Source: a virus. From it: a stretch of DNA of 64,000 nucleotides. Shown here piece after piece: positions 38,061 to 54,315 of this stretch (within the stretch, counting starts at the first letter, position 1; the number at the start of each line of letters is the position of its first letter). The DNA lies in the IMG/VR virus record IMGVR_UViG_3300029858_000005; one strand, written 5' to 3'. The notes beneath the pieces are model-generated. The model was not told where the DNA came from and made no database searches. It saw only the letters and a list, made by a program, of their open reading frames with translations. The position numbers and the translations under genes are program-made.

Positions 38061-38083
38061 TACAAACCATTTATATTAGAATT

Positions 38084-38209
38084 ATGAAACAGAGAATCAA
38101 GGAATTTTGCGATAAGTACATGTGGTTTATCTTGCCTGCTTGCAGCGTTCTAGCTATAATGCTGGGTGTTGTTTTGGAGAAGCATTTTCCACTGAGTGAA
38201 ATTCTGTAG
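38084..38209 (+). CDS. small membrane protein (41 aa)
   Basis: Start cassette ...ttagaattATG. One hydrophobic helix. Confidence 0.5.
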   Translation: MKQRIKEFCDKYMWFILPACSVLAIMLGVVLEKHFPLSEIL

Positions 38210-38259
38210 CCTAATCTCCCTACGCTTGTAGGGAACGAATAACCAAAAATATTAGAATT

Positions 38260-38394
38260 ATGAGTACGCTGAGAATTAAATGCCTCGATATGTGCGAGGT
38301 TGAGAGTATCATTGCAGATGCTCAGGAGATTTTGAGTCACGTAGAATTCGGGTCGCTAAAGAATGGTGTGCTTACATTATTCTGCGTGGCGTGA
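38260..38394 (+). CDS. hypothetical small protein (44 aa)
   Basis: Start cassette taaccaaaaatattagaattATG. The stop sits within TGAGCCTAA. Too short for the ORF track. Confidence 0.45.
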   Translation: MSTLRIKCLDMCEVESIIADAQEILSHVEFGSLKNGVLTLFCVA

Positions 38395-38465
38395 GCCTAA
38401 AAATCCGTAGCCAGTACGATAATTGTCGTGCGTGGCTACGGAACAATTACCAATATTTTAGAATT

Positions 38466-38699
38466 ATGAAAGCAAGACAGATCATTTATTCAAGTACGAT
38501 AATTGTGCTTGGATTTATTCAGAGTGCGCCGGCATTCATTTGCTTGGCAAGTACGATAATTCTCCTGAATGTGCTTGGAATTCTTTACGGAATTCTGCTT
38601 GTGTATATTTGGAGCAGTACGAAAAAGGGTAAGTGGTATTTCCGTGAGCTGTGGAGATCCACACTCCGCTTGGAGAATTTCATCCTTCCTGGAGTTTAA
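38466..38699 (+). CDS. small two-helix membrane protein (77 aa) overlapping AGTACGATAAT repeats
   Basis: Start cassette present. The track ORF starts earlier at 38391. The repeated DNA encodes STII three times. Confidence 0.45.
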   Translation: MKARQIIYSSTIIVLGFIQSAPAFICLASTIILLNVLGILYGILLVYIWSSTKKGKWYFRELWRSTLRLENFILPGV

Positions 38700-38801
38700 G
38701 AGATTTGGAAAGTACGATAATTGTGCTTGGAAACATTTAGCTAAATTCTGCTTGGAGAAATCCAGGCAGTACGATAATATAACCAATTAAATTACAGAAT
38801 T

Positions 38802-38999
38802 ATGAAGAAGAATATTTTCGTGGCATTGTTTGCCGTAGTGTGTGTTGCATTGTTTGTAGTATCAATTACTCTGTATAATTGTCACAGGGCGAACGTGATG
38901 CTGAGAAAGACTGTTATCAGCCAGGCTAACGAGATTTTGAAACTAAACGGCTGTCACACAGCAGAGGGAGGTACAACGTTCGTAGGTCTCAGAAAGTAG
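38802..38999 (+). CDS. small membrane-anchored protein (65 aa)
   Basis: Start cassette present. N-terminal hydrophobic helix. Confidence 0.55.
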   Translation: MKKNIFVALFAVVCVALFVVSITLYNCHRANVMLRKTVISQANEILKLNGCHTAEGGTTFVGLRK

Positions 39000-39062
39000 C
39001 CAAAAAATGTGCTCAGGCATTTTCCTGGGCATACTATGTAAAACCATTAAACAAATTGAATT

Positions 39063-39239
39063 ATGTTAGACAGAAAATCACAGAAGAATTTTGAGCGTGC
39101 GCTTATGCATGAGATGGAGAAGATCAAGATTGCAGCGCGCCAGTGGCATAGCAACAATACTAAGGGCTACAGAGATTATCGTAGCAAGAAAACTATCTCC
39201 AAGAGTTTCTCTGAGATTGCGGTATTGTGCATGAGCTAA
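39063..39239 (+). CDS. hypothetical small basic protein (58 aa)
   Basis: Start cassette aaaccattaaacaaattgaattATG. Preferred over the antisense track ORF 39078..39275. Confidence 0.45.
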   Translation: MLDRKSQKNFERALMHEMEKIKIAARQWHSNNTKGYRDYRSKKTISKSFSEIAVLCMS

Positions 39240-39287
39240 ATGTGCGTGACGATTGTCACGCATACTATTCACCAATATTTAAGAATT

Positions 39288-39578
39288 ATGATAGATGAAG
39301 AATACAAGGAGAATGTAGAGTACATACTCTCTACGATTTTGCCTAAGTTGCAGGAAATCCAAAAAAAAGTATTGAAAAATCAATCAAGACTGAGCCTTGA
39401 TGTTAGCGTTAGCAATAAAAACGGCGAAGGGTATATAAGTTGTTTTGCCTGTGTCATGAATGACATGGGAGAAATAACGGATACTTGTTTTCCACGTTTC
39501 ATCTGCGTATGCAGCAAAGAGGAGATGGACGAGCGGCTCAACGAGCTTAAAGAGTTCATCAAGAAGCACCTAACCTGA
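39288..39578 (+). CDS. hypothetical protein (96 aa)
   Basis: A start cassette marks the internal Met of track ORF 39240..39578. Confidence 0.55.
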   Translation: MIDEEYKENVEYILSTILPKLQEIQKKVLKNQSRLSLDVSVSNKNGEGYISCFACVMNDMGEITDTCFPRFICVCSKEEMDERLNELKEFIKKHLT

Positions 39579-39627
39579 AATTGAGGGAGTTATTTCTCCC
39601 TCTCCTATAAACCAAAAATGTAGAATT

Positions 39628-39897
39628 ATGAGCAAGTGGATTCAGTTTTATCATAAGATTAACAAGTTTGACCTTGTGAACATGAGATTTACGGATGATT
39701 TCAGTATCGTGGAAATGGTGGGCATGGATTCTGTCATGCCTATCGACGGCAGATTGAGTCTGTCATCCATACGTGATGTAGTACAAAAGAAAATCGAGAG
39801 CATGAAGAAAATCGAGAGTTTCGACCCTTGTGCGTTCTCCATCCTCACCGGTCCTACTATTCTGTGTGCTTCAGAAAGTCCGGTGTACAATCTCTAG
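39628..39897 (+). CDS. hypothetical protein (89 aa)
   Basis: Start cassette present. Stop within TAGCCAGA. Confidence 0.55.
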   Translation: MSKWIQFYHKINKFDLVNMRFTDDFSIVEMVGMDSVMPIDGRLSLSSIRDVVQKKIESMKKIESFDPCAFSILTGPTILCASESPVYNL

Positions 39898-39954
39898 CCA
39901 GAACTGGGCAGTACGATAATGCGCTGCCTGCTATTAACCAAAACAGAATATATT

Positions 39955-40119
39955 ATGACAGCAGAAGAAAAGACTCAGCTAGAGAAGCTTGTAGAAAAGT
40001 ATTTGAAAGAAGATGCGTACAAGCCACGAGGATGGGGAGAGAGAGCCGCAAGGAAGTTTCTCAGCGCATTAAATGGCGAGTGGCTTCTTACGTACAGCTT
40101 TAGACCAGATCCGGCGTAG
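39955..40119 (+). CDS. hypothetical small protein (54 aa)
   Basis: Start cassette at the internal Met of track ORF 39919..40119. Confidence 0.45.
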   Translation: MTAEEKTQLEKLVEKYLKEDAYKPRGWGERAARKFLSALNGEWLLTYSFRPDPA

Positions 40120-40164
40120 TTATTTGCTACGCCTCCAATTATTAACCAAATCAAAATTAGAATT

Positions 40165-40341
40165 ATGACAGACGGAGACAGAAAGTTCCTTGCCAGGCTC
40201 GTAGCGAGTCACAAGGCAGTTATCAGCGAGGAGTGCAGACGCAAGAATCTCGACAAGAGCGAGTATTTCAGACGCGTAGCGCGTGCAGACAAGAAGGCTC
40301 GGGAGATTGAGCAAGCGTGCATGAGTCCTCGCAAATTCTAG
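40165..40341 (+). CDS. small DNA-binding candidate (ribbon-helix-helix-like, 58 aa)
   Basis: Hand translation gives MTDGDRKFLARLVASHKAVISEECRRKNLDKSEYFRRVARAD... The KSEYFRR segment resembles RHH/MobC-type motifs. Start cassette present. Confidence 0.4.
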   Translation: MTDGDRKFLARLVASHKAVISEECRRKNLDKSEYFRRVARADKKAREIEQACMSPRKF

Positions 40342-40402
40342 CCAAACATTCTGTGCAGTCTATCTGCACAGAAACCATGTTAAACCATAAAAATGTAGAA
40401 TT

Positions 40403-41296
40403 ATGAAGAAAATTGTTAATACATTTACGAAGATTTTCGTACGAGACGGAAAGCGTCACAGAATTGTCGCTGTCGCTTCTTTAGGTGATGAGTGCAGAAA
40501 TAACATCTGCACTTTCTCTATTACAGGTCAGATAGATATTTTCTGTTTCGGTTCATGGCACTGCAAAACCTGCGGTTGCATTACAGACGAGATATGCAAA
40601 TTCTTTCCGGAATTGAAGCCATTTGTAAATCTTCACATGTGCAACTACAAGGGACAGCCATTCTATACTGTTGATAATGGCATTTACTATGTATCCCAAA
40701 GTAAGGAGATTGCTATGCGTAATCTCAGAATTACCGAGGATGAGTACGAGGCCCTGCTCCCTGCTGCCGAGCTGAACGACAAGGACTATTTTGTCTATAA
40801 GCTGTTCAAACTTGGCATCGTTAAGAGATGGAAGTCTGAAGCAGACAAGTTCATTGAGTTTCTTCTTCGCCAAGGAGGTGAATGGGAGAATCCATACACT
40901 ATCAGCGACGAAAGACCGACAATTAAGCTGACCGGAGGCATAAGAGCTCTTGTAGAATCCAGACTCAAGAAAGGATACTACACGAAGGAAAATATTGATA
41001 AGATATTGCAGCAAAGAAGAGCTGACGAAATCAGCAAGAAACGTCAGTCTGTAATTGAAGAGTTCTACAAGAAGACCGAAAAAGCTCGCAATGAGCGTGA
41101 CGTGATGCTTTACATTCTTGACCACGGTCTTTCTATCGGTAACGTGATTTATTACGATTACAACAACACCGTGAAGTTCAACTGGCTCGATTACAAGGAG
41201 CAGATTACGAAAGAACAGTTCGAGAATTTTATTGGGAACTTAGATCCCAGCAAGTTGCCTGAGGGTATTAAATTCTCAATCGACATCAAGAAGTAG
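40403..41296 (+). CDS. hypothetical protein (297 aa, N-terminal Cys cluster)
   Basis: Track ORF with start cassette. Confidence 0.65.
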   Translation: MKKIVNTFTKIFVRDGKRHRIVAVASLGDECRNNICTFSITGQIDIFCFGSWHCKTCGCITDEICKFFPELKPFVNLHMCNYKGQPFYTVDNGIYYVSQSKEIAMRNLRITEDEYEALLPAAELNDKDYFVYKLFKLGIVKRWKSEADKFIEFLLRQGGEWENPYTISDERPTIKLTGGIRALVESRLKKGYYTKENIDKILQQRRADEISKKRQSVIEEFYKKTEKARNERDVMLYILDHGLSIGNVIYYDYNNTVKFNWLDYKEQITKEQFENFIGNLDPSKLPEGIKFSIDIKK

Positions 41297-41351
41297 CCAA
41301 CCAATCCTCACTACAACGGGTGGGGATTTCTATTAACCAAATATTAGAATT

Positions 41352-41690
41352 ATGATAACGGATTACTACACAGCCGTACACTGGCTAAAAAGTGCGTTCA
41401 TCCTCTGTAACGAGATTGTAGAGAATGACGAATCAGTGATTGAAAACATCGAGTATCCAGAGATGACAGAAGAAGAAAGGAACAGAATCGAGATATTCCA
41501 GTGGTTCCTCACTAACATGAGCGAAGAGGATAAGGAATGGATGCAGAAGAATTTCCCTGATCTTATCTTCTCTTACTCAGACAAGCTTGACTTGTGGATT
41601 CTTTGCGTAGATCATTTTGGAACGATGTGGAAGGGAGTCCCAACGACTACCAACTGCGAGAATGCGGCAAAGGCTAGCCAGCTGCCGTAG
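41352..41690 (+). CDS. hypothetical acidic protein (112 aa)
   Basis: Track ORF, flanked by two near-identical cassettes. Confidence 0.6.
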   Translation: MITDYYTAVHWLKSAFILCNEIVENDESVIENIEYPEMTEEERNRIEIFQWFLTNMSEEDKEWMQKNFPDLIFSYSDKLDLWILCVDHFGTMWKGVPTTTNCENAAKASQLP

Positions 41691-41748
41691 CCAAACCAAT
41701 CCTCACTCCCATGGGTGGGGATTTCTATTAACCAAAGATTACAGAATT

Positions 41749-41988
41749 ATGAGTGATTTAGAGAAAATCCTGAATGACGATTTACTGAAGTGTAAAATCG
41801 TTGAGTCAGTAGAGAATCCCGTTAGGCGTGTGGACCTTATCAAGTGGACGCACGACAATACATACTCTATTGCTGAGGTACGCAAGGATACCGGTAAGCT
41901 AGAGGTCACAGACTTGAAAGCTGCCAGTGGTCTTGATGCATACAAGCATTTCTACAGAAATTATGGCGACATTGCCATATGTGGCTAA
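41749..41988 (+). CDS. hypothetical protein (79 aa)
   Basis: Start cassette at the internal Met of track ORF 41617..41988. Confidence 0.55.
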   Translation: MSDLEKILNDDLLKCKIVESVENPVRRVDLIKWTHDNTYSIAEVRKDTGKLEVTDLKAASGLDAYKHFYRNYGDIAICG

Positions 41989-42041
41989 AACTCCCCACAC
42001 CATTGTGGGGAACCATTATGAACCATTAAAACAGATGAATT

Positions 42042-42581
42042 ATGGAAAAGAATATTGTAGAAGTTGTTATGAATAACAAGGGTGAAGTTGTCGAGAAAGT
42101 AGCCGATTATATCGGTGTGGCAAGTTTTGCCGCGGTTATCGAGAGCCTCTATCGTGAGTGTCTTGAAAATTTCGATGACGCAGAGGATCTGGAAGAATAC
42201 ATTGCAGATGTATTCGAAAAGAATATCCAGTCTCTTGCGTGGGAGTTTACCCACAAGGTAAACAGAGAGATGAAGAAATATCTCCATCTTAACGACCAGC
42301 GCATGGATGGTAATTTTGCCAATCTGTACAACGATTATCCTAGACACGTTACAGGTACGTTCTGGGCGACGGACTACGATGGCGACGATTACTACGATTT
42401 GTATCCTCAGATGGTAGCCAGACTCGATTCCGCAGAGGACAGCGAGCAGGCGAACGAGGATAGAGCGTACCTAGAGGAATGGTATTTCAAGGCGTTCGGC
42501 ACGTACAACATCAAGTACAATTTCTCGAATGAGCTTGAAGAGGTTCACTCCATGATGGAGGAAGATTATGAGGAAGCCTAA
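42042..42581 (+). CDS. hypothetical highly acidic protein (179 aa)
   Basis: Track ORF with start cassette. The D/E/Y-rich composition could fit a DNA mimic, but this is unproven. Confidence 0.6.
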   Translation: MEKNIVEVVMNNKGEVVEKVADYIGVASFAAVIESLYRECLENFDDAEDLEEYIADVFEKNIQSLAWEFTHKVNREMKKYLHLNDQRMDGNFANLYNDYPRHVTGTFWATDYDGDDYYDLYPQMVARLDSAEDSEQANEDRAYLEEWYFKAFGTYNIKYNFSNELEEVHSMMEEDYEEA

Positions 42582-42636
42582 CAATATCCCCTAGCATGGG
42601 GATATTCAATGTTAAACCATTTAAATGATATTAGAT

Positions 42637-43479
42637 ATGAGTTACGAATTTGCAAAGAAAGAAATCGGCGATTACAGAATCACCATTTATCAGGATGAGA
42701 ATGCCGAATGCCCTTGCTCTGCATGGGATTTGGCAGGCGTATATCTTTGGGAGTATACCAGTTGCGGTAGTGGAAGATTAAGTAACGGCTGTAACTGGGA
42801 TGAAATATACGACAGAAAATACGACACTAATAACCACAGTTTGCAGGATGCTCTTCGTGAGCTTGTATACATGTACGTTCCGCAGAATCGTCTTGTAAAA
42901 TATCTGAAGAGCAACAAGCATCGCTCTGCCAAATTATCGTATGATAGAAGCTCTCATGTTTGGGAACTTGATTATTACGACAGCAGAGAGGCATACAAGA
43001 CTTCGGTAGAGTTTACTCCTGACGAAATCAAGAACTATGAAATGAGAGCAGAGATGATCGAGCCTATGAACAACGAGGACTTGATATGGCTGCTTGATGA
43101 CATAGCTTACGAAATCGTGATATACGAGTGGTCTTCTACGGGATACTGCCAGGGAGACTACGTAGAAGGCATTGCCTATTGCGACAAGGAGCGCTTCAAA
43201 AAGATGGTTGATACAAATACCAAGAACTGGAAGAATCGCGCTATCGAGCTGTTTGAGAGCGAAGTCAAGGATATTGGTATGTGGATGTGGGGTGATGTAA
43301 AAAGTTACGTCCTAGAAAAGAAACGCCCGTATACAAAATTGTACGAGGACGGTAAATCTTCTGATTCCTACGAGTGGAAGCAGATTGAATCCTGTTGCGG
43401 AGAGTACTTCGAAGATGCTGATGACCTCATCGAAGAGGTTATCAAGGAACACGGCTTACAGCCGAAAGATGCAGCCTAA
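42637..43479 (+). CDS. hypothetical protein (280 aa)
   Basis: Track ORF 42625..43479. The ATG at 42637 matches the ttagatATG cassette. Confidence 0.6.
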   Translation: MSYEFAKKEIGDYRITIYQDENAECPCSAWDLAGVYLWEYTSCGSGRLSNGCNWDEIYDRKYDTNNHSLQDALRELVYMYVPQNRLVKYLKSNKHRSAKLSYDRSSHVWELDYYDSREAYKTSVEFTPDEIKNYEMRAEMIEPMNNEDLIWLLDDIAYEIVIYEWSSTGYCQGDYVEGIAYCDKERFKKMVDTNTKNWKNRAIELFESEVKDIGMWMWGDVKSYVLEKKRPYTKLYEDGKSSDSYEWKQIESCCGEYFEDADDLIEEVIKEHGLQPKDAA

Positions 43480-43527
43480 CAAGGGGAGCTTGCATGCTCC
43501 TCTTCCATTAACCAATTAAATAGAATT

Positions 43528-43788
43528 ATGGGAAAGATTACAATTTCGCAGAAGGGAAGTAGAACTATCTACAGAGTGAACAGAAGAATCGTGTGCTATC
43601 GTGACGGGCACAAGTATTGTGTGGGCAAGCCATCATCTGGCAGCACCCATATCGAGCTTGATGCCTTGTCCGAGAATATTGCACACGAGAGATGCATTGA
43701 GATTTGTGAGCGTAGAATCAATGCGGAGATGAAGTATCAGAATCCTGTCGCATACAACGCCCACAGAGTATTGAACGCATTAGCCTAA
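43528..43788 (+). CDS. hypothetical protein (86 aa)
   Basis: Track ORF with start cassette. Confidence 0.55.
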   Translation: MGKITISQKGSRTIYRVNRRIVCYRDGHKYCVGKPSSGSTHIELDALSENIAHERCIEICERRINAEMKYQNPVAYNAHRVLNALA

Positions 43789-43841
43789 AAACGGAGGGAG
43801 CAATCCCTCTGACATTATTAACCAATAAATTATTAAGAATT

Positions 43842-44249
43842 ATGGATAAAAAAGAAATGTGGAAAGTACTTGGACGTGACGATTACGCACACAAGTCTCA
43901 AGAACTGAAAAAAAAGTGCGAGGAACTGGCGAAAGCTATATGCGATAAGCTCATTGAGCTTGACATGACAGAAATCTTCATCCCTCGCTGTGGTATTACC
44001 TTCAGAGTTATTACCGTGCAAATAAGTTGTGTTAAACGCATTCTTCTTGCGCTAGAGAGTGGCACCATTTACTATTTGTTGCAAGAGTTTGATATATGCA
44101 ACATACATGCTGGTGACCTTAATGTGAAGGTTGGCCGCGTAGTAGATGCACTTAGTTTTGTTACTCACTTGGACGAGATATTACAAGAAATATCGAAGAT
44201 TGAGGACAAAGAAGTCGCAGACATCGAAGCTGCTCTCAAGAGACTCTAA
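43842..44249 (+). CDS. hypothetical protein (135 aa)
   Basis: Track ORF with start cassette. Confidence 0.6.
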   Translation: MDKKEMWKVLGRDDYAHKSQELKKKCEELAKAICDKLIELDMTEIFIPRCGITFRVITVQISCVKRILLALESGTIYYLLQEFDICNIHAGDLNVKVGRVVDALSFVTHLDEILQEISKIEDKEVADIEAALKRL

Positions 44250-44259
44250 CATCTATCAT

Positions 44260-44301
44260 CCGTGAGCGACAGGCGCACATCGGGTTCGAGACCCGACACG
44301 G
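44260..44301 (+). other. tRNA-like minihelix (closing stem plus small hairpin plus T-arm-like hairpin)
   Basis: ccgtg-a-[gcg acagg cgc]-aca-[tcggg TTCGAGA cccga]-cacgg. Confidence 0.3.
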
Positions 44302-44329
44302 AACAATATTAACCAAAATTACAAGAGTT

Positions 44330-44557
44330 ATGAAGAGATATTACGTATCAGTCACAGAGCATTTAAACAAGGTAGTCAGCGTTGATGCTGAGAGTGAGAA
44401 TGAAGCCGTACAGAAAGTGCAGGATGCCTATAATAATAGCGATATTATTCTTGACGCTGACAATTTCTCAGGTGAGGTTATCGAGATCGAACCAGATCAG
44501 GAGTACTGGAGAGAATCCGAAGAGGATGACAGCGCAGCACTCCAGCATATCGACTAA
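44330..44557 (+). CDS. hypothetical acidic protein (75 aa)
   Basis: Track ORF with start cassette. Confidence 0.55.
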   Translation: MKRYYVSVTEHLNKVVSVDAESENEAVQKVQDAYNNSDIILDADNFSGEVIEIEPDQEYWRESEEDDSAALQHID

Positions 44558-44609
44558 GCCTAAAAAGAGAGGGTAGCTCCCTCTCACAATAACCAAAACA
44601 AGAAGAATT

Positions 44610-47913: not shown

Positions 47914-47970
47914 GCCTCATCCACTAGAGTTAAATAAATTTTTAGTAACCAATTTAAAATAATTAGAATT

Positions 47971-49041
47971 ATGAAGCAGATTGTAACAATCACTGGTGAG
48001 AACTTGAACATCGTAACAAAAAACGTAGAGGCTACAGCAGCTACCCAGAAGACCAAGGCGCAGATGCGTCTCGAAGCTCTTAAGGCAGCAGGCGTTGATA
48101 CTAGTAAATATTTCCCTCTCGGTGACGACCAGCTTATCAAGATCGAAAATGGCGCAGCAGTTCCTGTAGACATGGACGATGCAACCATCGATGCGGTAGG
48201 CAAGCAGATTGTCGAGGGTGGATACGTAAGCAACTGGAAGCTCTTCCGTCGTTGGGTGATGAGTCAGATGTTCCACATGTTGCGAGACATGGATAAGAGT
48301 TATCTGTCATTCAACGAGGTGTTGCAGCACAAGGGCTACGAGTATCAGTGGCGCATGTTGGAGAACGAGCTGCATGCTCAGATGAAGATGTGTGACCACA
48401 AGGATTACGAGAACACCAAGGCGAGAAATCGCTGGTTCAACGGCTGCGTAGCACACGATATGGCTATTGACTATATTAACAAGCTTCGCAGCTATATTGA
48501 CGACAAGTGCATCTACACTACCAAGATAGACAAGGATGGAAAAAAGAAGAAGACATACAAGCATACCTGCAAGGGTAATCCTTATATCCGTCTTCAAAAC
48601 GAAAACATCTTCGTCGCTGACTTGGAGAGAAAGGTATACAATCCTCTCCGTGACCTTGCCAACAAGATGGGGGCTGTACCGACCTACACCTACAAGGAGC
48701 TCTACGATGCAGTTCGCGAGTTCAACAAGAACCGCAAGCATCTCGCATGGGATACCAAGCAGGCAGATGCATTCATTCATGCTTACAAAGGGTCTGGTTC
48801 CTACTACACGATGAGAAACCTCATCATGTTCCATGGAGCAAGATTCATGAAGAACGGACGAAAGATGTCAGAGGCCAATTCTCTGAAGGAGCTTGAGTCT
48901 AAAGCCAAGCTCTACGATGAAGAGGGTTGGAAGATGCTCGGTGTACTCAAGCAGCTTATCAAGGACAATAATATAAGCGTCCAGGGCAAGATTCTTGAAT
49001 GGAAGAAAGCCAAGAGCGAGAACAAGGAAGAGGTTCAGTAG
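47971..49041 (+). CDS. hypothetical protein (356 aa)
   Basis: Track ORF with start cassette. Confidence 0.65.
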   Translation: MKQIVTITGENLNIVTKNVEATAATQKTKAQMRLEALKAAGVDTSKYFPLGDDQLIKIENGAAVPVDMDDATIDAVGKQIVEGGYVSNWKLFRRWVMSQMFHMLRDMDKSYLSFNEVLQHKGYEYQWRMLENELHAQMKMCDHKDYENTKARNRWFNGCVAHDMAIDYINKLRSYIDDKCIYTTKIDKDGKKKKTYKHTCKGNPYIRLQNENIFVADLERKVYNPLRDLANKMGAVPTYTYKELYDAVREFNKNRKHLAWDTKQADAFIHAYKGSGSYYTMRNLIMFHGARFMKNGRKMSEANSLKELESKAKLYDEEGWKMLGVLKQLIKDNNISVQGKILEWKKAKSENKEEVQ

Positions 49042-49262
49042 GACGTAAGGTTCGCCACCTAAAGAATGGTGGCTCGGCAGCAATTCACAAGAGCTTCTTC
49101 AACGAAGGATCTCCTCCAGTCACTACTGGAGGTAATCCTTCGAGCTAAAGCTCTCTAGATCGAACTTATAGAGTAAGGCGCCAGCCGGGGACCATTTTAG
49201 CCAAAAGTCGGTTACTGATTCGGTAACCGATTCGAAAAGTTTAACCAATAAAATTAAGAATT

Positions 49263-49658
49263 ATGAAGGAAATTAATGTAGACACAAGAGAGTATATTAA
49301 GGCTCTTATTGACGGGAAGAATGTCGTCGAGGAATCACTTCTAGACGCAATCTTTGACGATTCGCAATATCTCACCAATAAGTTTTTTTCATTGGGATTT
49401 GTAGGAGGCGCACCTACAATGATAGAGTATCACGGAAACTACCTATCTATCAGGAAGCTTCGATCGTGGATTACATCAGAGTGGGGTAGAGAGATTGTCA
49501 AACGACTGACTGGCGAATCAAAAAATAATATATACTATTTCGAGACGAAGCAGTATCTCGACGAACGCCAGGCTGAGCCTTTAATCTATACATTCTTTCT
49601 GAGCACAGATTACCTTACTGTAAGATTTCACTACAATGTAAAAGTAGATGAAGATTAG
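49263..49658 (+). CDS. hypothetical protein (131 aa)
   Basis: Track ORF with start cassette. Confidence 0.6.
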   Translation: MKEINVDTREYIKALIDGKNVVEESLLDAIFDDSQYLTNKFFSLGFVGGAPTMIEYHGNYLSIRKLRSWITSEWGREIVKRLTGESKNNIYYFETKQYLDERQAEPLIYTFFLSTDYLTVRFHYNVKVDED

Positions 49659-49709
49659 CCAAACATGTCAGTCGTTAGCAGCGGCTGACTACTCATATCA
49701 TAACTAAAT

Positions 49710-49758
49710 TTTGTTTAAATGGTTCAAGCCGGTCTGTCGTGAGACACGCCGGTTTTTT
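49710..49758 (+). terminator. TTTGTTTAAATG motif plus 13-bp hairpin with GTGA loop plus T-run (copy 1)
   Basis: aagccggtctgtc-gtga-gacacgccggttt(ttt). It contains a 7-codon ATG..TGA mini-ORF. Confidence 0.5.
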
Positions 49759-49792
49759 GTTCCACAAGTTTAACCAATTTTAAATTAGAATT

Positions 49793-50497
49793 ATGAGTAG
49801 AAATTACTGGACATTAGGTAAGGAAGGAATTAAGACTCGTCTGTCAAAGGCACAGGCAGCTTACGAGAACGCATTGGAGAATGTAGAGAACCTGCACGTC
49901 AAGATCAGTGATGGCAACAACAAGTTGGGAGCAATCCCATCTGTTTCGCTCATCCCGGTCATGGATTGCGGTAACTGTGCAATCTGTGCCAAGAGCTGCT
50001 ACGACCTGCGTAACGACCTCATCTACAAAGAGGTCGTCAAGACTAGAGCTATTAACTCCGCAATCTATCACGTGGATCCTGAGCGATACTTCAAGGAGAT
50101 TGATGACTACCTCAACTACCGCTATCCTAGAGCATTCCGATTCCACATCGGAGGCGACATCCGGGACAAATGGTATCTTGACAAAATGTGCGAGATTGCT
50201 CGCAAGCATAAGGATACCAAGTTCCTTGCGTTCACGAAGATGTTCGATGTGTGCAACGAGTATCTCGATGAGGGCAACGTAATCCCTGGGAACATGCACA
50301 TTCTCTTTTCGGGGTGGCTTGGTCTCAAGATGGATAACCGCCACGGATTTCCGGAGGCGCATCCTATCTTCGAGAGCGGAACGTCTGCTCCGGAAGGAAC
50401 ACGTCTGTGTACCGGGAACTGCACAGAGTGTCTGAAGGAAGATAGGTTGTGCTGGTCTATCGGGAAAGGTCAGGCGGTAGGATTCCTTGCACACTAG
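49793..50497 (+). CDS. GP88-family-like Cys-cluster protein
   Basis: KLGAIPSVSLIPVMDCGNCAICAKSCYDL...FRFHIGGDI...FLAFTK resembles the phage GP88 domain pattern (SLP..TCPG...C...CYA...GD...TK), recalled from memory. Confidence 0.4.
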   Translation: MSRNYWTLGKEGIKTRLSKAQAAYENALENVENLHVKISDGNNKLGAIPSVSLIPVMDCGNCAICAKSCYDLRNDLIYKEVVKTRAINSAIYHVDPERYFKEIDDYLNYRYPRAFRFHIGGDIRDKWYLDKMCEIARKHKDTKFLAFTKMFDVCNEYLDEGNVIPGNMHILFSGWLGLKMDNRHGFPEAHPIFESGTSAPEGTRLCTGNCTECLKEDRLCWSIGKGQAVGFLAH

Positions 50498-50556
50498 CCA
50501 AAAGCCTCGTCGAAACGACGGGGTACTATGTTTAACCAATTAAAATTTTGTGAATT

Positions 50557-50991
50557 ATGGCATCAGCAAGAAGAGGTACAAGAATGCTCAAAGCTTCCGA
50601 CATTATGAAGAGAAAGGGCATTGTCCAGAAACAGATGGACATGGACAAGTTCAACGAGGTTGTAGAGAATTTCTTTATGACCCATGAGCCTAAGGAGACG
50701 ATTCTCCTTACTCCGAAGAGATTCATCGAGATGGATAACCCGCCAAATGGAGACTTCATTGACTATCTCGATGTCAGCGTGTGGAAGAAGAGAAGCGAAG
50801 ACCCAAATGACCCGTTCGACTTCATCGACTTTCAGTACATGAAGAAGAACGGGATGCTCCGTCCTATCCTTATAGTGAACGAGCCTTTCATCGGCAATGC
50901 TGCCGGGTGGCTGAGAGATTTTTGTGGATTCACTGTGAAGAACAGAACACGAAAGAAGAAGAAGGAATATATCGTGTCTCTGCCGGTGTAA
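50557..50991 (+). CDS. hypothetical protein (144 aa)
   Basis: Track ORF with start cassette. Preferred over the antisense ORF 50563..50997. Confidence 0.55.
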   Translation: MASARRGTRMLKASDIMKRKGIVQKQMDMDKFNEVVENFFMTHEPKETILLTPKRFIEMDNPPNGDFIDYLDVSVWKKRSEDPNDPFDFIDFQYMKKNGMLRPILIVNEPFIGNAAGWLRDFCGFTVKNRTRKKKKEYIVSLPV

Positions 50992-51054
50992 AGCCAAACA
51001 ATGCGTGGAACATTCTGTTTCACGCTCCTAGTATTAACCAATTAAAATAGAGAT

Positions 51055-51423
51055 ATGGAAGATTTAGAAAGATTCAAGAAGTTTGTCAGAGAGAACAATC
51101 CTATGGTTCCTGACTTGTTGCAGGAGTTTGAACCAGTCCGCAAGATCGATTCCGTAGAAGATATCAACGATTGTGACTGGATTCATCTAATGGATGAGTA
51201 CGATGCGGCGAACATCACCTGGAAGGCTCAGATGATGGCGCAGGAAGTCGAAGATGCGCTCGGCAGCGATGAGTACACCTGCCACATACAGGAATACCCG
51301 AAGAGCGGCCGTATAGGTGTTATCATCGATGGAACACAAGAGTTCCTTGGCAAGAAGAGCGAATGCGAGAATTATCTTCAGGGGCTCCTTAGAGCACTGG
51401 AAATCACAAAGGAGAATCACTAA
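51055..51423 (+). CDS. hypothetical acidic protein (122 aa)
   Basis: Track ORF with start cassette. Confidence 0.6.
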   Translation: MEDLERFKKFVRENNPMVPDLLQEFEPVRKIDSVEDINDCDWIHLMDEYDAANITWKAQMMAQEVEDALGSDEYTCHIQEYPKSGRIGVIIDGTQEFLGKKSECENYLQGLLRALEITKENH

Positions 51424-51479
51424 GCCGAACAAGCCTGCCTGGAACGGTGGGCATCAAGTTAAACCAAAATATTAAGATT

Positions 51480-51998
51480 ATGAAGAGAAAAGTATTGAAA
51501 GACAAGATTGATGAGTTGCGTTCAACAGCAAAGATGGAACTTGCATGCACCATCCGTGAGATAATGAGAGAGCACAATGTGAGCAGAAAGGTGTTCGATT
51601 GGCCTGTACTTGCCGGCGACAACAGGGAGGTGAATATCGTAGAAGTAGGCGACAGCGAAACAGCTATCCCTATCATTCATAGCCGATGCACTTCTGTAGG
51701 GTTTGAGTTCCCGGAAGCAAAAGCTATCGATGACGATATACCAGTTGACCTTCTTGCAGACATCGCTACTAGTCTGAACGACGAGCTGAACGGCTATATC
51801 GGTGTCTATGCTGCAAAGTATAAGATTGCCTACAATGATGGAATTTTCATTCCTAAGGAGAATCCGTACGTATTCCGGGCAGAATCATATAAAGATGCAT
51901 TGGATGAGGCGGAAGACTACATGCGTGTGTGGAATGACCATAATGGTTCTACCCTAAGACTCGTGTCAGTCGAGAAGCAGACTGCTTCGGAAGGTTAA
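51480..51998 (+). CDS. hypothetical protein (172 aa)
   Basis: Start cassette at the internal Met of track ORF 51447..51998. Confidence 0.6.
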   Translation: MKRKVLKDKIDELRSTAKMELACTIREIMREHNVSRKVFDWPVLAGDNREVNIVEVGDSETAIPIIHSRCTSVGFEFPEAKAIDDDIPVDLLADIATSLNDELNGYIGVYAAKYKIAYNDGIFIPKENPYVFRAESYKDALDEAEDYMRVWNDHNGSTLRLVSVEKQTASEG

Positions 51999-52047
51999 AT
52001 TAGCGTTAAAAACGGCAAAGACGATGGTTTATATTATAAACTTTTCG

Positions 52048-52055
52048 TATCTTTG
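52048..52055 (+). promoter_or_regulatory. -7 promoter motif (TATCTTTG) in front of the internal recombinase gene
   Basis: It lies in the right arm of an imperfect inverted repeat (52014-52024 / 52045-52057). The loop of that repeat contains GGTTTATAT. Confidence 0.4.
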
Positions 52056-52081
52056 CCACTAGTAACCAAAATTATAGAATT

Positions 52082-53101
52082 ATGACAGAAGAAATAAGAA
52101 TCAAGACAAGAGATTGGGAGAGACTTCTGAGCTACACTCAGCAGCAGAAGTACAAGACTGCCATCAAGCAGGGTTGGTTCGCCAATTATCACGGCAACTC
52201 GTGGAGGCATGACACGTTCTATGGCGCATACATCTGGAAATACCCGAAACTTATTAAGGTTGTAAGGATGTTCGAAGAGATGCTTGGACATAAGCCATTA
52301 TGGGAAGACATCACCGACGACAATCTGCGCGACCTCTATGAGAAGATTCAGGAGAACTACGCTCCTAACTCGGCAAGAACCGTATGTGCAACCATCAAGG
52401 CCGTGATACGTGAGAACGATGCTACCAGGGAAATTCCTAGTCCTACGTTCGGCAGAATACTTAGAGCGAAGGCTGTACCGGTTCAGTCTGTATATCTCTC
52501 TGATGAGGAGATAAACAGGATCATCAAGTACAACCCTCACGGGAAAACAAAAAGATATGTTCAGAGAATGTTTATCATGGAATGTCTCTGTGGCGCACGT
52601 TACAGCGACTGCCAGAGGATGACGGAAGAGAACATAGATGATACCGGACACTTCCTCGTGTATGTTACTCAAAAGACAAAGACCGAGGTAAGGGTTCCAC
52701 TTCACAAGAAGCTCCGTAAGTTCCTCGTATGCGGCACTGGTGACGAGCCTCTTCCGGGTGAGATAGGTGAAAGGACGTTCAATAGAGCACTCCGCGATAT
52801 CTGTCGTGACTGCGGAATAGATACGAATACAAAGGTGTTCAAAGCTGGAAAGGAAGAGACAGGAAAGAAGTATCGGTTCGTATCATCCCATACGGGCAGA
52901 CGCTCGTTCGCAACGAATCTCTCAAAGAAGGGAGTACCTCTTGAGCAGATTGCCGTCATGATGGGACATACCAGTAACGGTATGCCTAATATACAGATGA
53001 CACAGCGCTACATTGTCGGTAAGACCGAGATTGACAGCAATACACTGAGATTGTTCGGCGTCTATGAAGAAGACCTCGATAACGGTCTAGATGAGGATTA
53101 A
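52082..53101 (+). CDS. tyrosine recombinase (second, internal copy)
   Basis: Catalytic-type residues seen: CGARYSD (Arg), SSHTGRRSF (His-x-x-Arg), MMGHTS (His), TQRYI (Tyr). Confidence 0.8.
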   Translation: MTEEIRIKTRDWERLLSYTQQQKYKTAIKQGWFANYHGNSWRHDTFYGAYIWKYPKLIKVVRMFEEMLGHKPLWEDITDDNLRDLYEKIQENYAPNSARTVCATIKAVIRENDATREIPSPTFGRILRAKAVPVQSVYLSDEEINRIIKYNPHGKTKRYVQRMFIMECLCGARYSDCQRMTEENIDDTGHFLVYVTQKTKTEVRVPLHKKLRKFLVCGTGDEPLPGEIGERTFNRALRDICRDCGIDTNTKVFKAGKEETGKKYRFVSSHTGRRSFATNLSKKGVPLEQIAVMMGHTSNGMPNIQMTQRYIVGKTEIDSNTLRLFGVYEEDLDNGLDED

Positions 53102-53164
53102 GCTAAAACTGGAGGTGGCCAGCTGCCATCTCCTGCCATTGTTTAACCAATTAAAATAATGATT

Positions 53165-53587
53165 ATGGTAGAAGATTATACAGTAGAAGAGTTGAATAAA
53201 CTCATCAATGAGTGTCGGAAGAAGTACGAAAAGCTAGAAAAGGAGACCGTCATGAAGGCTCTGACTGGCGAGATTGGTACGAACTCCGCAATGGTGGAAG
53301 AGTTGGAGATACTCAACATCCACTATCACGATGAAATGGATGAGTACGATATAACTGCACCTGACCTGAATCCAGATCTTATCGATAATTTCAAGAGGGC
53401 AGAGCGTGATGGCAAGAACGTCATCTTCGAGGCACAGGAATATCTTAAGATCCTGGGAATGTGCGAAGAAATGTTCAACCAGAAGCTATGGGTCAACGAA
53501 GATGGCCACATATGCGATGAAGAAGGTAATAGACTTTCCGCCGACAGAGAGCATCGTGTTTTCGAAGTTGTTAAGTGCGGAAAATAA
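53165..53587 (+). CDS. hypothetical acidic protein (140 aa)
   Basis: Track ORF. The ATG at 53165 matches gattATG. Confidence 0.55.
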   Translation: MVEDYTVEELNKLINECRKKYEKLEKETVMKALTGEIGTNSAMVEELEILNIHYHDEMDEYDITAPDLNPDLIDNFKRAERDGKNVIFEAQEYLKILGMCEEMFNQKLWVNEDGHICDEEGNRLSADREHRVFEVVKCGK

Positions 53588-53613
53588 TATACATCTAGTT
53601 TTCATATACTAGA

Positions 53614-53663
53614 TTTGTTTAAATGTTCGTCCTCTCTTGCCCGTGAGGGTAGGGGAGGATTTT
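53614..53663 (+). terminator. TTTGTTTAAATG motif plus 13-bp hairpin with GTGA loop plus T-run (copy 2)
   Basis: tcctctcttgccc-gtga-gggtaggggagga-tttt. Same geometry as copy 1, a different stem sequence, and a 7-codon mini-ORF. Confidence 0.5.
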
Positions 53664-53736
53664 AAAAACGGCCCCGATTAGCCAAAAATAGGGAGCTTCG
53701 GCTCCTGCAATTAATAACTTTTAAAAAATAAGAATT

Positions 53737-54315
53737 ATGGCAAATTGGGCATCAACAAGCTATCGTATTGAAGGCAACCAGAAGGACCTTCAGGAGTTAA
53801 ACAACCTTTGCAAGGCGTTTATGAACAAAGAGCGTCCTGTAATGGAGGAAGGAGCAGATGAGAACTGGGAAGGAAATATCATCCTGGCTCTTGGCGAAGT
53901 AATCGGTGATAACTACATTCGTGGATTTATCCATACATGCGAGTTATCAGACGGCCTATTAAAAATTTGTGCAGAGGAGGCATGGGGAGCAACGGACTTC
54001 AATAAGCTCCTCGAAAAACACTATGACGGCATGAAAGTGTACTTTATAGTGGAAGAGGAAATGTGTGAGATCTATGCTACAAACGACGCAGAAGGCAAAT
54101 ACTTCAACTGTCGCTCTGTATTGACTTCGTATGTAGATGGAGAATATCACAGAGAAGAGTTTAAGAATAAAAACGAGGCTTTAAAGTATGCAGCGAAACT
54201 CATTGGTCGTGATTCTGTCACAAAGTTAGAAGTTGCAAAGTGGAACGAGGAACGCAAGAATAAAGGCGTTTTTGAATACATAAACATCAATGGATGTGAT
54301 ATTATTGACGAGTAA
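53737..54315 (+). CDS. hypothetical protein; N-terminus MANWASTSYRIEG resembles DUF1281/Api92-like proteins
   Basis: 192-aa track ORF. The resemblance is from memory only. Confidence 0.55.
   Translation: MANWASTSYRIEGNQKDLQELNNLCKAFMNKERPVMEEGADENWEGNIILALGEVIGDNYIRGFIHTCELSDGLLKICAEEAWGATDFNKLLEKHYDGMKVYFIVEEEMCEIYATNDAEGKYFNCRSVLTSYVDGEYHREEFKNKNEALKYAAKLIGRDSVTKLEVAKWNEERKNKGVFEYININGCDIIDE

Follow-up and report, generated by a model that had tools for sequence, protein, structure and literature searches.

The window, i.e. the whole stretch of viral DNA that was analysed (64,000 nucleotides), is the genome of a temperate siphophage. Near-identical prophages were found in Segatella copri genomes, and the host of the phage is the gut bacterium Segatella (Prevotella) copri. 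One block of this genome holds an array of co-oriented genes (Table 1), the products of which have recognisable domains only for RT, integrase, GP88, and DpnD/PcfM. An integron type was ruled out for the tyrosine recombinase of the array (21.6 bits vs a cut-off of 265). The ORF-free leader in front of the array is kept in relatives in its length (about 700–800 nt) and at both ends, and the host-type promoter match further upstream was seen in 39 of 74 relatives. Terminator-like hairpins with T-runs lie 3' of the 173-aa gene at 37308–37333 and 37393–37413, and the array may therefore be out of reach of transcription from the promoter at 36685.

Table 1. Array, flanking features and cassettes, with positions in the window.
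Feature	Position	Strand	Details
Host-type promoter match	36685-36716	+	TTTG-N20-TACCTTTG; nearest full one upstream of array; precedes 173-aa gene 36778-37299
ORF-free, hairpin-rich leader	37300-38024	+	separates 173-aa gene from cassette 1
Array, 29 co-oriented genes, mostly small ORFans	38025-53739 (16-kb block)	+	27/29 with upstream cassette
Cassette 1, no upstream gene	38025-38086	+	GGCTAAC 38025, hairpin 38032-38055 (-16.7 kcal/mol), AACCA 38065, AGAATT-ATG 38084
Cassette	38207-38262	+	stop with TAGCCTAA, hairpin 38217-38234, AACCA 38241, ATG 38260
Variant-box cassette	38392-38468	+	AGCCTAA 38394, hairpin 38414-38431 (loop GTACGATAAT type), ATTACCAAT 38447, ATG 38466
Cassette	38739-38804	+	AGCTAAA 38739, hairpin 38748-38769, AACCA 38781, ATG 38802
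Cassette	38997-39065	+	stop with TAGCCAAA, hairpin 39008-39033, AACCA 39042, TGAATT-ATG 39063
Cassette without Box A	39576-39630	+	hairpin 39583-39602, AACCA 39610, ATG 39628
Cassette	40102-40167	+	hairpin 40113-40133 across upstream stop 40117-40119, AACCA 40144, ATG 40165
Cassette	40339-40405	+	TAGCCAAA, hairpin 40349-40373 (z -5.0), AACCA 40383, ATG 40403
Cassette	41294-41354	+	TAGCCAAC, hairpin 41303-41328 (G·U pairs), AACCA 41335, ATG 41352
Cassette	41688-41751	+	TAGCCAAA, hairpin 41698-41723, AACCA 41730, ATG 41749
Cassette	41983-42044	+	GGCTAAA enclosing stop, hairpin 41992-42011, AACCA 42021, ATG 42042
Short-leader cassette without AGAATT	42575-42627	+	AGCCTAA enclosing stop, hairpin 42583-42606, AACCA 42615, ATG 42625
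Cassette	43473-43530	+	AGCCTAA, hairpin 43481-43504, AACCA 43510, ATG 43528
Cassette	43782-43844	+	AGCCTAA, hairpin 43792-43811, AACCA 43820, ATG 43842
Cassette without Box A	44280-44332	+	hairpin 44280-44296, AACCA 44311, AGAGTT-ATG 44330
Cassette 5' of reverse-transcriptase gene	44555-44612	+	TAAGCCTAA, hairpin 44567-44585, AACCA 44591, ATG 44610
Degenerate cassette past 1.3-kb ORF-free stretch	47150-47185	+	CTATTAACAAAT 47164, AGAATT-ATG 47183; without stable hairpin
Cassette extending into upstream ORF	47404-47463	+	AGCCAAT 47404, hairpin 47413-47436, stop 47426-47428, AACCA 47443, ATG 47461; AGCCAAT and hairpin 5' arm coding
Cassette	47891-47973	+	coding AGCCAAA 47891, hairpin 47901-47922 across stop, AACCA 47947, ATG 47971
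Cassette	49199-49265	+	AGCCAAA 49199, hairpin 49206-49232 (12 bp), AACCA 49243, ATG 49263
Cassette	49726-49795	+	hairpin 49726-49755 then TTTTTT (sole copy in window with T-run after hairpin), AACCA 49772, ATG 49793
Cassette	50495-50559	+	TAGCCAAA, hairpin 50504-50524, AACCA 50534, TGAATT-ATG 50557
Cassette	50989-51057	+	TAAAGCCAAA, hairpin 51003-51025, AACCA 51036, AGAGAT-ATG 51055
Cassette	51421-51482	+	TAAGCCGAA, hairpin 51433-51452 (U·G, G·U pairs), AACCA 51462, AAGATT-ATG 51480
Cassette 5' of integrase gene	52010-52084	+	long hairpin about 52012-52058, AACCA 52064, ATG 52082
Cassette	53099-53161	+	TAAGCTAAA, hairpin 53111-53133, AACCA 53145, ATG 53159
Final cassette, degenerate box	53680-53739	+	AGCCAAA 53680, hairpin 53691-53706, TTAATAACT 53713, AGAATT-ATG 53737
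Solitary cassette	31327-31385	-	hairpin, TTAACCAAAA, TGAATT-ATG, then mere 7-codon ORF

The cassette comprises about 55 bases and consists, in this order, of a stop-codon box (Box A, AGCCWAA), an RNA hairpin, a CTATTAACCAAW box (Box B), and an A-rich leader. A sequence-only reading of the locus had described such a repeated module, and its existence was confirmed by the composite pattern AACCA-N8-16-RAWTATG, which has 23 matches in the window vs 0.35 expected from shuffles (0 of 100 shuffles reached 23). Twenty-one matches are on the plus strand between 38065 and 53167; the other two are a minus-strand match at 31327–31348, the cassette of which is probably a remnant, and a match at 59252 that is likely due to chance. 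The same reading had assigned the cassette to 29 consecutive genes. An AACCA-type box or a one-base variant (ATTACCAA at 38447, TAACAAA at 47164, AATAACT at 53713) precedes 27 of the 29 genes that start between 38084 and 53737. The box is missing at 39240 and 39919, where the gaps to the upstream gene are 0 nt and 21 nt, respectively. AGAATT or a one-base variant lies directly 5' of 25 ATGs. About 18 junctions with the stop codon embedded in Box A had been counted earlier; if relaxed variants such as AGCTAAA, GGCTAAA, and AGACCAG are included, Box A is present at 22 junctions and overlaps or abuts the stop codon at 15 of them, in three registers (T-AGCC, TA-AGCC, and AGCC-TAA). The four hairpins quoted at that time are all present, at 40349, 42583, 50504, and 53111.

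Eighteen hairpins of the window fold at -9.6 to -16.7 kcal/mol, with z <= -2 against dinucleotide shuffles in 16 of the 18. The hairpin sequences fall into 57 unrelated families. Internal non-Watson–Crick oppositions in 781 stems are G·T in 390 cases vs A·C in 16, and G·T occurs in 24 and A·C in nine of the unrelated families. Compensatory changes from one Watson–Crick pair to another were found at 16 stem pairs, for some with U·G intermediates, and folding is 2.4 kcal/mol more favourable for the sense than for the antisense strand. The hairpins are under selection to fold in the sense strand, i.e. as an RNA-level structure, while the G·T bias would also fit a hairpin in plus-strand single-stranded DNA. 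Among 879 distinct cassettes, only 0.5% have TTTT within 10 nt after the stem, and the first 8 nt past it contain a mean of 2.9 T. A canonical terminator was ruled out by these missing U-tracts, which together with the sense-strand selection support the earlier proposal of RNA stabiliser or processing sites.

Box B has a nearly invariant core of 5–6 nt within a 15-nt consensus, and its invariant AACCA lies 17–24 nt, mostly 18–21 nt, 5' of the ATG. From the hairpin to the ATG the sequence is G-poor (G below about 5% at most positions, except for G at -5 and 12–14% at -7/-8), and the claim that a Shine–Dalgarno sequence is absent holds. Adenine peaks at -3 (0.85), -6 (0.75), and -11 to -14 (0.59–0.80). 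In Flavobacterium johnsoniae, A-3, A-6, A-12/-13, and an unpaired region from -20 to +20 were measured as determinants of translation start, and they were also noted in Bacteroides (PMC6847099; PMC7366714). The stem ends about 23–36 nt 5' of the ATG and thus beyond this unpaired region. The adenine pattern of the leader looks like the known translation-start signature of the Shine–Dalgarno-blind Bacteroidia, and the match of the last 15 nt to it (A-3, A-6, A-11 to -14) supports a role in translation initiation, which had been among the first suggestions.

The cassette, as had been proposed, was sought in related phages and recurs in all 80 viral contigs fetched by a single array protein, with 5–29 copies per contig and about 20–29 in those spanning the full 21 kb. 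Homology break points between relatives lie inside cassettes in 70% of cases vs 14% expected, a figure to be read with the caveat that any mosaic phage is expected to show gene-boundary break points to some degree, since recombinants with cut genes are eliminated. Where junction pairs have only the downstream gene in common, box and leader are kept with it in 71%; for Box A and hairpin, 48% of junction pairs show retention with the upstream gene and 24% with the downstream one. The most frequent shuffled unit is box, gene, stop, and hairpin, and one gene may have up to nine different upstream neighbours. These data support the earlier idea of recombination cassettes resembling T4 PeSLs. The box is also conserved in a second, independent lineage, as a Prevotella MAG locus (L305) without nucleotide similarity to the window carries the hairpin, CTATTAACCAAW, and the A-rich leader 5' of nine genes.

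The explanation that is favoured, although tentatively and with somewhat less than even confidence, is an RNA-level intercistronic expression module doubling as a recombination linker. Its main site of action would be the mRNA of a long block of accessory genes that are transcribed together; we infer co-transcription, processing, and a reader of the box. The 3' half of the upstream unit consists of the stop codon merged with the A-rich AGCCWAA box and a stable hairpin of 7–11 bp, the pairing of which is maintained while its sequence is free. This hairpin probably guards the upstream message from 3' exonucleases once the U/A-rich stretch behind it is cleaved. The 5' half of the downstream unit is a G-free single-stranded leader, running from the box CWAYTATTAACCAAW to the A-rich tract and AGAAUU-AUG and probably shielded by the hairpin from upstream coding RNA. 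To ribosomes incapable of Shine–Dalgarno pairing it may offer a uniform, unstructured loading site for every gene, newly acquired ORFans included, and the AACCA box may be recognised sequence-specifically by a candidate ribosome component, RNA-binding protein, or RNase. As identical boxes stand before dozens of unrelated genes, a side effect is that they serve as short homologies where genes are acquired, lost, or exchanged between related phages, each as a unit ready for expression. However, a sequence-specific box of 15 nt is more than an unstructured leader requires, and two related Bacteroides phages, BI-TP1 and BS-TP1, do without such a box in expressing similar blocks of genes.

The main rival, which appears possible but rather doubtful, regards the cassettes as promoter-attenuator units functionally equivalent to T4 PeSLs. 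In this reading, a phage-specific promoter would be recognised through the CTATTAACCAAW box, either by an alternative sigma factor or by a host RNA polymerase that a phage factor has redirected; transcription would start a few bases downstream, and the hairpin would attenuate or end transcription from the preceding unit. Box, gene, stop, and hairpin would then form a promoter-to-terminator unit, and the near-invariant core within its 15-nt consensus, kept in a lineage otherwise without nucleotide similarity, fits this reading, as do architecture, ORFan association, and break points, which parallel PeSLs (PMC2839356; PMC4122927). A candidate factor, suggested in the sequence-only reading, is the phage protein encoded at 56910–57824, which has HTH_17, sigma-70 region 4, and alpha-CTD-like domains; the domain call made there is correct. 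However, the scanned proteins of the window included no sigma region 2 protein, no complete sigma factor, and no phage RNA polymerase. The box is unlike the host promoter (-33 TTTG / -7 TAnnTTTG), as already stated in the sequence-only reading; a search of the cassettes for its consensus gave none, full matches being located exclusively outside the array (e.g. 36685–36716), and sigma-70-type matches were not enriched (47 vs 41.2). The spacing between box and AGAATT varies by 8 nt, which excludes the two as analogues of -35 and -10 elements. A start 5–8 nt past the box would give leaders of about 3–12 nt, whereas only 3.7% of B. thetaiotaomicron leaders are shorter than 10 nt (PMC7366714), and part of the conserved A-11 to -14 tract would stay outside the transcript. 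In promoters, moreover, the surroundings of the start site are usually the least conserved part. The hairpins also lack U-tracts. The phage-specific promoter suggested at first is weakened by the short leaders, about 10 nt or less, that it would give, together with the missing host match and polymerase.

An unlikely alternative is a regulon operator, in which the box, alone or with Box A, is bound by one phage or host regulator that switches the whole array; this could be a T4 RegA-like RNA-binding translational repressor or activator, a T4 RegB-like endoribonuclease, or a DNA-binding repressor. A sequence-specific motif with a fixed spacing to 27 start codons, the common A/C-rich RCCAA core of Box A and Box B on either side of the hairpin, and the confinement to one functional block would agree with it. 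However, neither an RNA-binding protein nor a nuclease emerged as a candidate, L305 and the phage have a single protein in common, a 179-aa ORFan of very acidic composition with an unusable predicted structure (pLDDT 59), and this explanation overlaps the RNA-level module rather than replacing it. Least probable are recombination linkers or self-spreading repeats kept for gene exchange, duplication, and capture with little role in expression: the concentration of break points, the changing upstream neighbours, the near-duplicate adjacent cassettes 41294–41354 and 41688–41751, and the orphan minus-strand cassette would suit them, but strand-specific hairpin selection and ATG-relative adenine positions indicate an RNA function, conserved boxes of only 7–15 nt are short for homologous recombination, the recombinase is not integron-type, and Box A and Box B, unlike attC core sites, do not form inverted repeats.

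A close relative in kind of the cassette is the promoter-early stem-loop (PeSL) of T4-type myoviruses (Arbiol et al. 2010, PMC2839356; Comeau et al. 2014, PMC4122927). Both are short composite intergenic motifs made of a stem-loop, a conserved gene-proximal signal, and a translation start, both recur ahead of numerous small ORFan genes within a plastic part of the genome, and in both the end points of insertions, deletions, and replacements between related phages sit in the motifs. For PeSLs, promoter activity and termination of transcription by the stem-loop were both demonstrated, and the promoters fit the sigma-70 consensus of the host (PMC2839356; PMC4122927). In contrast, the cassette has a box matching no known host promoter, a hairpin without U-tract, no Shine–Dalgarno sequence, and a third conserved element, AGCCWAA, at the stop codon; its host belongs to the Bacteroidota and its phage is a temperate siphophage.

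The start-associated sequences (SAS) and extended SAS (ESAS) of Cluster K mycobacteriophages (Pope et al. 2011, PMC3203893) are likewise asymmetric, conserved repeats linked to the translation starts of a gene subset in one orientation, often with an inverted repeat just 5' and with a suspected role in translation initiation. The SAS (GGGATAGGAGCCC) sits right at the start codon, with 11–19 copies genome-wide, and a 17-bp sequence is conserved in the inverted repeats of the ESAS (PMC3203893). Unlike these, the cassette has its box 17–24 nt upstream, its stems covary without conserved sequence, and it serves nearly every gene of one block.

In lambdoid phages, boundary (linker) sequences are short, conserved, and proposed as guides of modular exchange, and morons have their own host-type promoters and terminators without a known common flanking motif. 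The mobility of genes as self-contained expression units is shared with the cassette (morons are discussed in PMC2839356), whereas the boundary sequences are not known as repeated multi-part modules. REP elements and processed T7 early mRNAs resemble the proposed RNA-level module in having RNA-acting hairpins between cistrons of one transcript, without terminator U-tracts. Such intercistronic stabiliser hairpins protect the upstream message after processing; REP elements are conserved in sequence, and the T7 sites are long RNase III substrates. In contrast to the cassette, neither kind is known to be joined to a fixed box downstream and a standard region for translation start.

The repeated intergenic cassette that the sequence-only reading had described could be followed gene by gene: it precedes 27 of the 29 consecutive genes of the array, and the two array starts without a cassette sit 0 and 21 nt behind the preceding gene. 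The full module has about 55 nt, in which Box A (AGCCWAA, at or near the stop codon) is followed by a hairpin, Box B with its AACCA core, an A-rich leader and the ATG. The pattern AACCA-N8-16-RAWTATG occurs 23 times in the window versus 0.35 expected. A core-independent search gave the Box B consensus C-W-A-Y-T-A-T-T-A-A-C-C-A-A-W, with frequencies of 0.89–0.98 at each AACCA position, and identified the box in at least 59 different gene families. The core starts 17–24 nt (mostly 18–21 nt) before the ATG, and the hairpin ends 5–12 nt before the core and about 23–36 nt before the ATG. Box A or a variant of it was found at 22 junctions, overlapping or abutting the stop codon in 15 and doing so in three registers; it is thus an element at the nucleotide level rather than a coding constraint. 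All 80 relatives (IMG/VR contigs fetched with the 356-aa protein of the array) carry 5–29 gene-strand cassettes, and about 20–29 where the full 21 kb is present. A CRISPR array, already dismissed from the sequence, and a tandem repeat were both rejected on anatomy, as the units are genes of differing length and the hairpins are unlike one another.

Near-identical DNA is present in the Segatella copri HDD04 chromosome (96%) and in a 59.6-kb Segatella copri MAG contig (98.8%), and more distant copies of the element were found in Prevotella sp. MAGs and Leyella stercorea; it is therefore a temperate phage of Prevotellaceae, which belong to the Bacteroidota. The HDD04 prophage lies at around 912-920 kb of NZ_CP152484.1. 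The structural and packaging module is that of a siphophage; to it belong a major head protein, a portal, a 2069-aa tape measure, a 2625-aa fibre with an S74 chaperone domain at its C-terminus, and a large terminase with 57% identity to those of the Bacteroides phages LoVEphage, BI-TP1 and PV4-TP1. The terminase ORF encodes 764 aa with a recognisable terminase domain from about residue 283, and homologues of the LoVEphage type align in two pieces (73% covered); it may carry an N-terminal extension or an insertion. Few array products are recognisable; they include a GP88-family protein and a DpnD/PcfM-like protein, whose family is known from conjugative plasmids.

Positions of the features discussed (in the window, unless another locus is named)
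Feature	Position	Strand
Structural and packaging module, first part	1-25 kb	-
Structural and packaging module, second part	25.9-31 kb	+
Large terminase ORF	25913-28207	+
Primase	34-36 kb	
Full host-type promoter match	36685-36716	
ORF-free leader before first cassette	37300-38024	+
Array	38025-53739	+
Starts of the 29 array genes, 27 preceded by a cassette	38084-53737	+
CAGTACGATAAT in or beside cassette hairpins	38414-38431, 38770-38780, 39905-39918	
179-aa acidic ORFan	42042-42581	+
179-aa acidic ORFan, counterpart in L305	4957-5373	
DpnD/PcfM-like protein	44330-44557	+
Reverse transcriptase locus	44610-47182	+
Reverse transcriptase locus, in L201	8365-12918	
GP88-family protein	49793-50497	+
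Tyrosine recombinase (integrase)	52082-53101	
Second intergenic cassette	54316-55656	+
Genes behind second cassette, starts	54355, 54658, 55051, 55654	+
304-aa protein	56910-57824	+
Tyrosine recombinase	61003	
GKATAACA box	2582-2589, 20566-20573, 21238-21245, 25055-25062, 25786-25793, 62996-63003	-

Free energies of 18 window hairpins ranged from -9.6 to -16.7 kcal/mol, with z <= -2 in 16 of them. In the relatives, 228 distinct hairpins were assigned to 57 unrelated sequence families, with stems of 6–14 bp (median 8) and a median of -11.8 kcal/mol; most loops have 3–6 nt (RNAfold). The stem finder scored G·T and A·C oppositions equally, and the internal non-Watson-Crick oppositions in the stems were G·T in 390 cases versus A·C in 16. 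Of the two, G·T alone is able to pair in an RNA with the sense of the gene. G·T was present in 24 hairpin families and A·C in nine, and rare variants inside the families showed a small bias (18 versus 11 columns), as expected if new A·C mismatches arise and are then removed. Pairing-preserving double changes were found at 16 stem pairs, some with U·G intermediates. By these pairing data, the hairpin acts in the sense strand. A hairpin in (+)-strand single-stranded DNA would fit the same G·T numbers, and RNA is the simpler reading because the favoured strand is the coding strand. Consensus folding of paralogous cassettes (MAFFT and RNAalifold) revealed no common helix because paralogous hairpins are not homologous. 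Rfam at gathering thresholds matched zero families in the window, and a search of 37200-47300 at E <= 1 returned nothing except a single chance miRNA match. CAGTACGATAAT recurs in or beside several cassette hairpins of the window, in L309 and in relatives, and appears to mark a hairpin sub-family of the early array and the relatives as a conserved loop or flank.

The leader was profiled in 59 gene families that were selected solely for having Box B. Adenine reaches a frequency of 0.85 at -3, 0.75 at -6 and 0.59–0.80 at -11 to -14, and G between -24 and -1 stays at about 0–8% at most positions, the exceptions being -5 (0.69), -4 (0.20) and -7/-8 (0.12–0.14). In ribosome profiling of Flavobacterium johnsoniae, A-3, A-6, A-12/-13 and low pairing from -20 to +20 were positive determinants (PMC6847099), and the same adenine enrichment is cited for Bacteroides (PMC7366714). 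Bacteroidota ribosomes ignore Shine-Dalgarno sequences (PMC7366714, PMC6847099), and the leader carries the Shine-Dalgarno-independent start signature of Bacteroidia (Baez et al. 2019; PMC6847099), with the end of the hairpin falling just outside the low-pairing span. Its RGAWT-ATG context is common to the late genes of the phage. By composition, the 3' half of the cassette is in all likelihood a translation start region of the Bacteroidia type. A role of positions -11 to -14 in translation would require their transcription, which would put any transcript start within the cassette at Box B or upstream of it. A start downstream of Box B would produce leaders of about 3–12 nt, and in B. thetaiotaomicron only 3.7% of leaders are shorter than 10 nt (PMC7366714). 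Mainly on these grounds we infer that Box B belongs to the RNA and does not represent a -10-like element.

The reading we tentatively favour is that the cassette is an intercistronic module working at the RNA level. The hairpin would stabilise and insulate the upstream cistron, the downstream cistron would obtain a standardised, unstructured leader for ribosome loading, and the AACCA box would be a sequence-specific element read by some factor. As a consequence, recombination would occur at the shared boxes and be exploited by the phage population. Two points weigh on this reading, namely the terminator-like hairpins with T-runs behind the upstream 173-aa gene and the specificity of a 15-nt box, which exceeds the needs of an unstructured leader. 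It has also been considered, as a speculative and rather improbable reading, that the AACCA box is a dedicated substitute for the Shine-Dalgarno sequence, recruiting the SD-blind Prevotella ribosome to internal cistrons sequence-specifically, with the hairpin as the 5' border of the loading site. The recruiting factor could be bS1 or a different component of the platform, or else an RNA-binding protein of phage or host. If true, a ribosome-recruiting site would exist 17–24 nt before the start codon.

The main rival is a PeSL-like promoter-attenuator cassette with a phage-specific promoter (PeSLs being the promoter early stem-loops of T4-type phages). It accounts for the sequence specificity of Box B and for the shape of the shuffled unit, but three points are at odds with it: the argument from leader length, the absence of U-tracts, and the fact that no transcription factor for such a promoter is recognisable. 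On balance it is unlikely. As to the U-tracts, TTTT within 10 nt after the stem was found in 0.5% of 879 distinct cassettes, the first 8 nt behind the stem contain a mean of 2.9 T, and the cassettes do not form a canonical intrinsic terminator (G+C-rich hairpin with an immediate sense U-tract). A terminator scan listed (-) terminators, since the A-run of Box A is a T-run on the antisense strand; that selection acts on these was rejected, given a wobble-pair ratio of 24:1 in favour of the sense strand. As to the promoter, the main Bacteroidota promoters are of the TTTG / TAnnTTTG type (PMC7366714, PMC6847099), and the host consensus TTTG-N-TAnnTTTG (-33 / -7) is missing from every cassette, in agreement with the earlier statement that the signal is not a host-type promoter. 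Full host-type matches were located outside the array, and an unrelated gut phage contig, in contrast, has TAnnTTTG 20–31 nt before many ATGs. Matches of the sigma-70 type were at background (47 versus 41.2 expected), the spacing of 30–45 nt is too variable for Box A to serve as -35 for Box B, and on an ECF-type reading (AAC at -35) the -10 would, by inspection, land on the ATG. The scanned proteins included no RNA polymerase and no sigma factor with region 2.

A protein of 304 aa has HTH_17 at its N-terminus, a helix-turn-helix like that of sigma-70 region 4 (residues 130–160) and a C-terminal domain resembling the CTD of the RNA polymerase alpha subunit (residues 214–280), without sigma region 2. 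It matches many alpha subunits among PDB sequences and, as a phage factor, could imitate parts of RNA polymerase or compete with them. The 173-aa gene and the first cassette are separated by an ORF-free leader of about 750 nt; it starts with two terminator-like hairpins bearing T-runs and is rich in hairpins, several of which have GAAATC-type loops. The 80 relatives conserve the length of this leader and its two ends, and its middle is variable.

That the cassette is the operator of a regulon is improbable; a search for a cassette reader among the array proteins (Pfam, NCBIfam, PHROGs, PDB sequences) gave nothing relevant. A literature search for the box sequence and for Segatella phage transcript maps gave nothing usable. 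Exact-pattern scans of viral and genome collections matched the same phage family many times. Apart from L305, a Prevotella sp. MAG locus, the remaining matches were singletons without a hairpin (median -4.9 kcal/mol over 50 nt upstream; true cassettes average -16.1 kcal/mol over 58 nt). L305 carries nine cassettes; at the nucleotide level it is not similar to the window, and its one weak protein homologue is 27% identical. The box is thus kept across lineages with little else in common. The protein common to both is a very acidic 179-aa ORFan with 481 database relatives, zero Pfam domains and a poor AlphaFold model (pLDDT 59); as a guess, it may be an anti-defence protein of the DNA-mimic type. 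Comparable small-gene blocks that lack the cassette occur in the Bacteroides phages BI-TP1 and BS-TP1.

The 80 relatives are mosaic in the gene content of this block: about 16 gene families form a common backbone, alternative genes are inserted between them, and a single gene has up to nine different upstream neighbours. Junction pairs that share only the downstream gene conserve box and leader in 71% and Box A and hairpin in 24%, and in pairs sharing only the upstream gene Box A and hairpin are conserved in 48%. The most common unit therefore runs from the box through leader, gene, stop and Box A to the hairpin, and a second break point lies at Box A. The proposal that exchange between related phages breaks at the cassettes gained support when the window was compared with the 80 relatives by BLAST: of the internal homology end points, 70% fell in cassettes ±10 nt (61% when distinct positions are counted), versus 14% of the sequence. 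As some border concentration is expected in any mosaic phage, this excess supports, and does not prove, a causal role of the cassettes as exchange points. It is improbable that they are pure recombination linkers.

Other recurrent motifs were observed. The second intergenic cassette precedes four genes and consists of TAATAA ... AGCCCTA, a short covarying stem (CGC/GCG, GCGC/GCGC, TCGC/GCGA or CGAC/GTCG, thermodynamically weak) enclosing the conserved loop A-N-CACGGT-N-AA, and AAGAAT-ATG; it has no AACCA box and recurs in relatives (families 40, 49 and 73). A GKATAACA box, often followed by ATTTTAAAA, is located about 20–65 nt before the ATG of several (-) late or structural genes (eight copies versus 3.5 expected, seven of them on the (-) strand) and may correspond, in the late genes, to the AACCA box. 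Within the array, a 421-aa reverse transcriptase is followed by 1.3 kb that is free of ORFs and contains many long inverted repeats. The enzyme has an RVT_1 domain, and its best NCBIfam match is a group II intron reverse transcriptase/maturase at 105 bits, below the cut-off of 300; Rfam gave no match at the locus. Bacteroides phage BS-TP1 shows the same order in gp79-gp82 (reverse transcriptase, a gap of about 1.35 kb and two to three genes, the last being a homologue of the 356-aa gene). The locus may encode a reverse transcriptase with a large structured non-coding RNA; a diversity-generating retroelement was rejected, as the window has no template/variable repeat pair anywhere.

In data from the human gut this phage family occurs very abundantly, and the organisation of gene expression in Bacteroidota phages is almost unstudied. 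The cassette bears on the unsettled question of how start codons are chosen in Bacteroidota without Shine-Dalgarno pairing, and the standardised module, which stands before unrelated genes in at least 59 natural variants, represents a ready-made mutational series. Should the proposed mode of action hold, Segatella and Prevotella, for which few genetic tools exist, would gain a portable part for insulation and translation start. Whatever the mechanism, it is an unusually clear linker case in modular phage evolution, with gain, loss and replacement at defined short motifs, and places exchange of the linker type outside the T4 group and in a temperate phage.

We place the cassette among the regulatory linker cassettes, and no earlier one of such kind was found for Bacteroidota phages in the searched literature. 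An integron-like attC array was rejected. The attC cores RYYYAAC...GTTRRRY are pairing inverted repeats, whereas Box A (AGCCWAA) and Box B (TTAACCAAT) share an A/C-rich composition and a direct orientation and are thus not complementary; the integrase is not of the integron type (21.6 bits against TIGR02249, cut-off 265), and the homologous integrase position is also occupied in the cassette-free phage BI-TP1. The closest systems are the SAS/ESAS repeats of Cluster K mycobacteriophages and the PeSLs. Like SAS, the cassette is tied to start codons, but SAS is a 13-bp asymmetric repeat immediately before the start, whereas the cassette core has another sequence and lies further upstream, and only the AGAATT context abuts the ATG. 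ESAS has conserved 17-bp half-sites, in contrast to the many unrelated, covarying stem families of the cassette. With PeSLs, the cassette shares a composite of stem-loop and gene-proximal signal before ORFans in a plastic region, here 27 in 16 kb, and indel or replacement end points between relatives that lie inside the motifs. The PeSL promoter matches the consensus of the host primary sigma factor, whereas the cassette signal does not match that of its host. The PeSL stem-loop is an effective terminator; in the cassette the canonical U-tract is missing, with TTTT in 0.5% of the 879 copies. In its genome dynamics the cassette resembles a PeSL in the way it works, but it has neither the defining promoter feature nor the hallmarks of a terminator.
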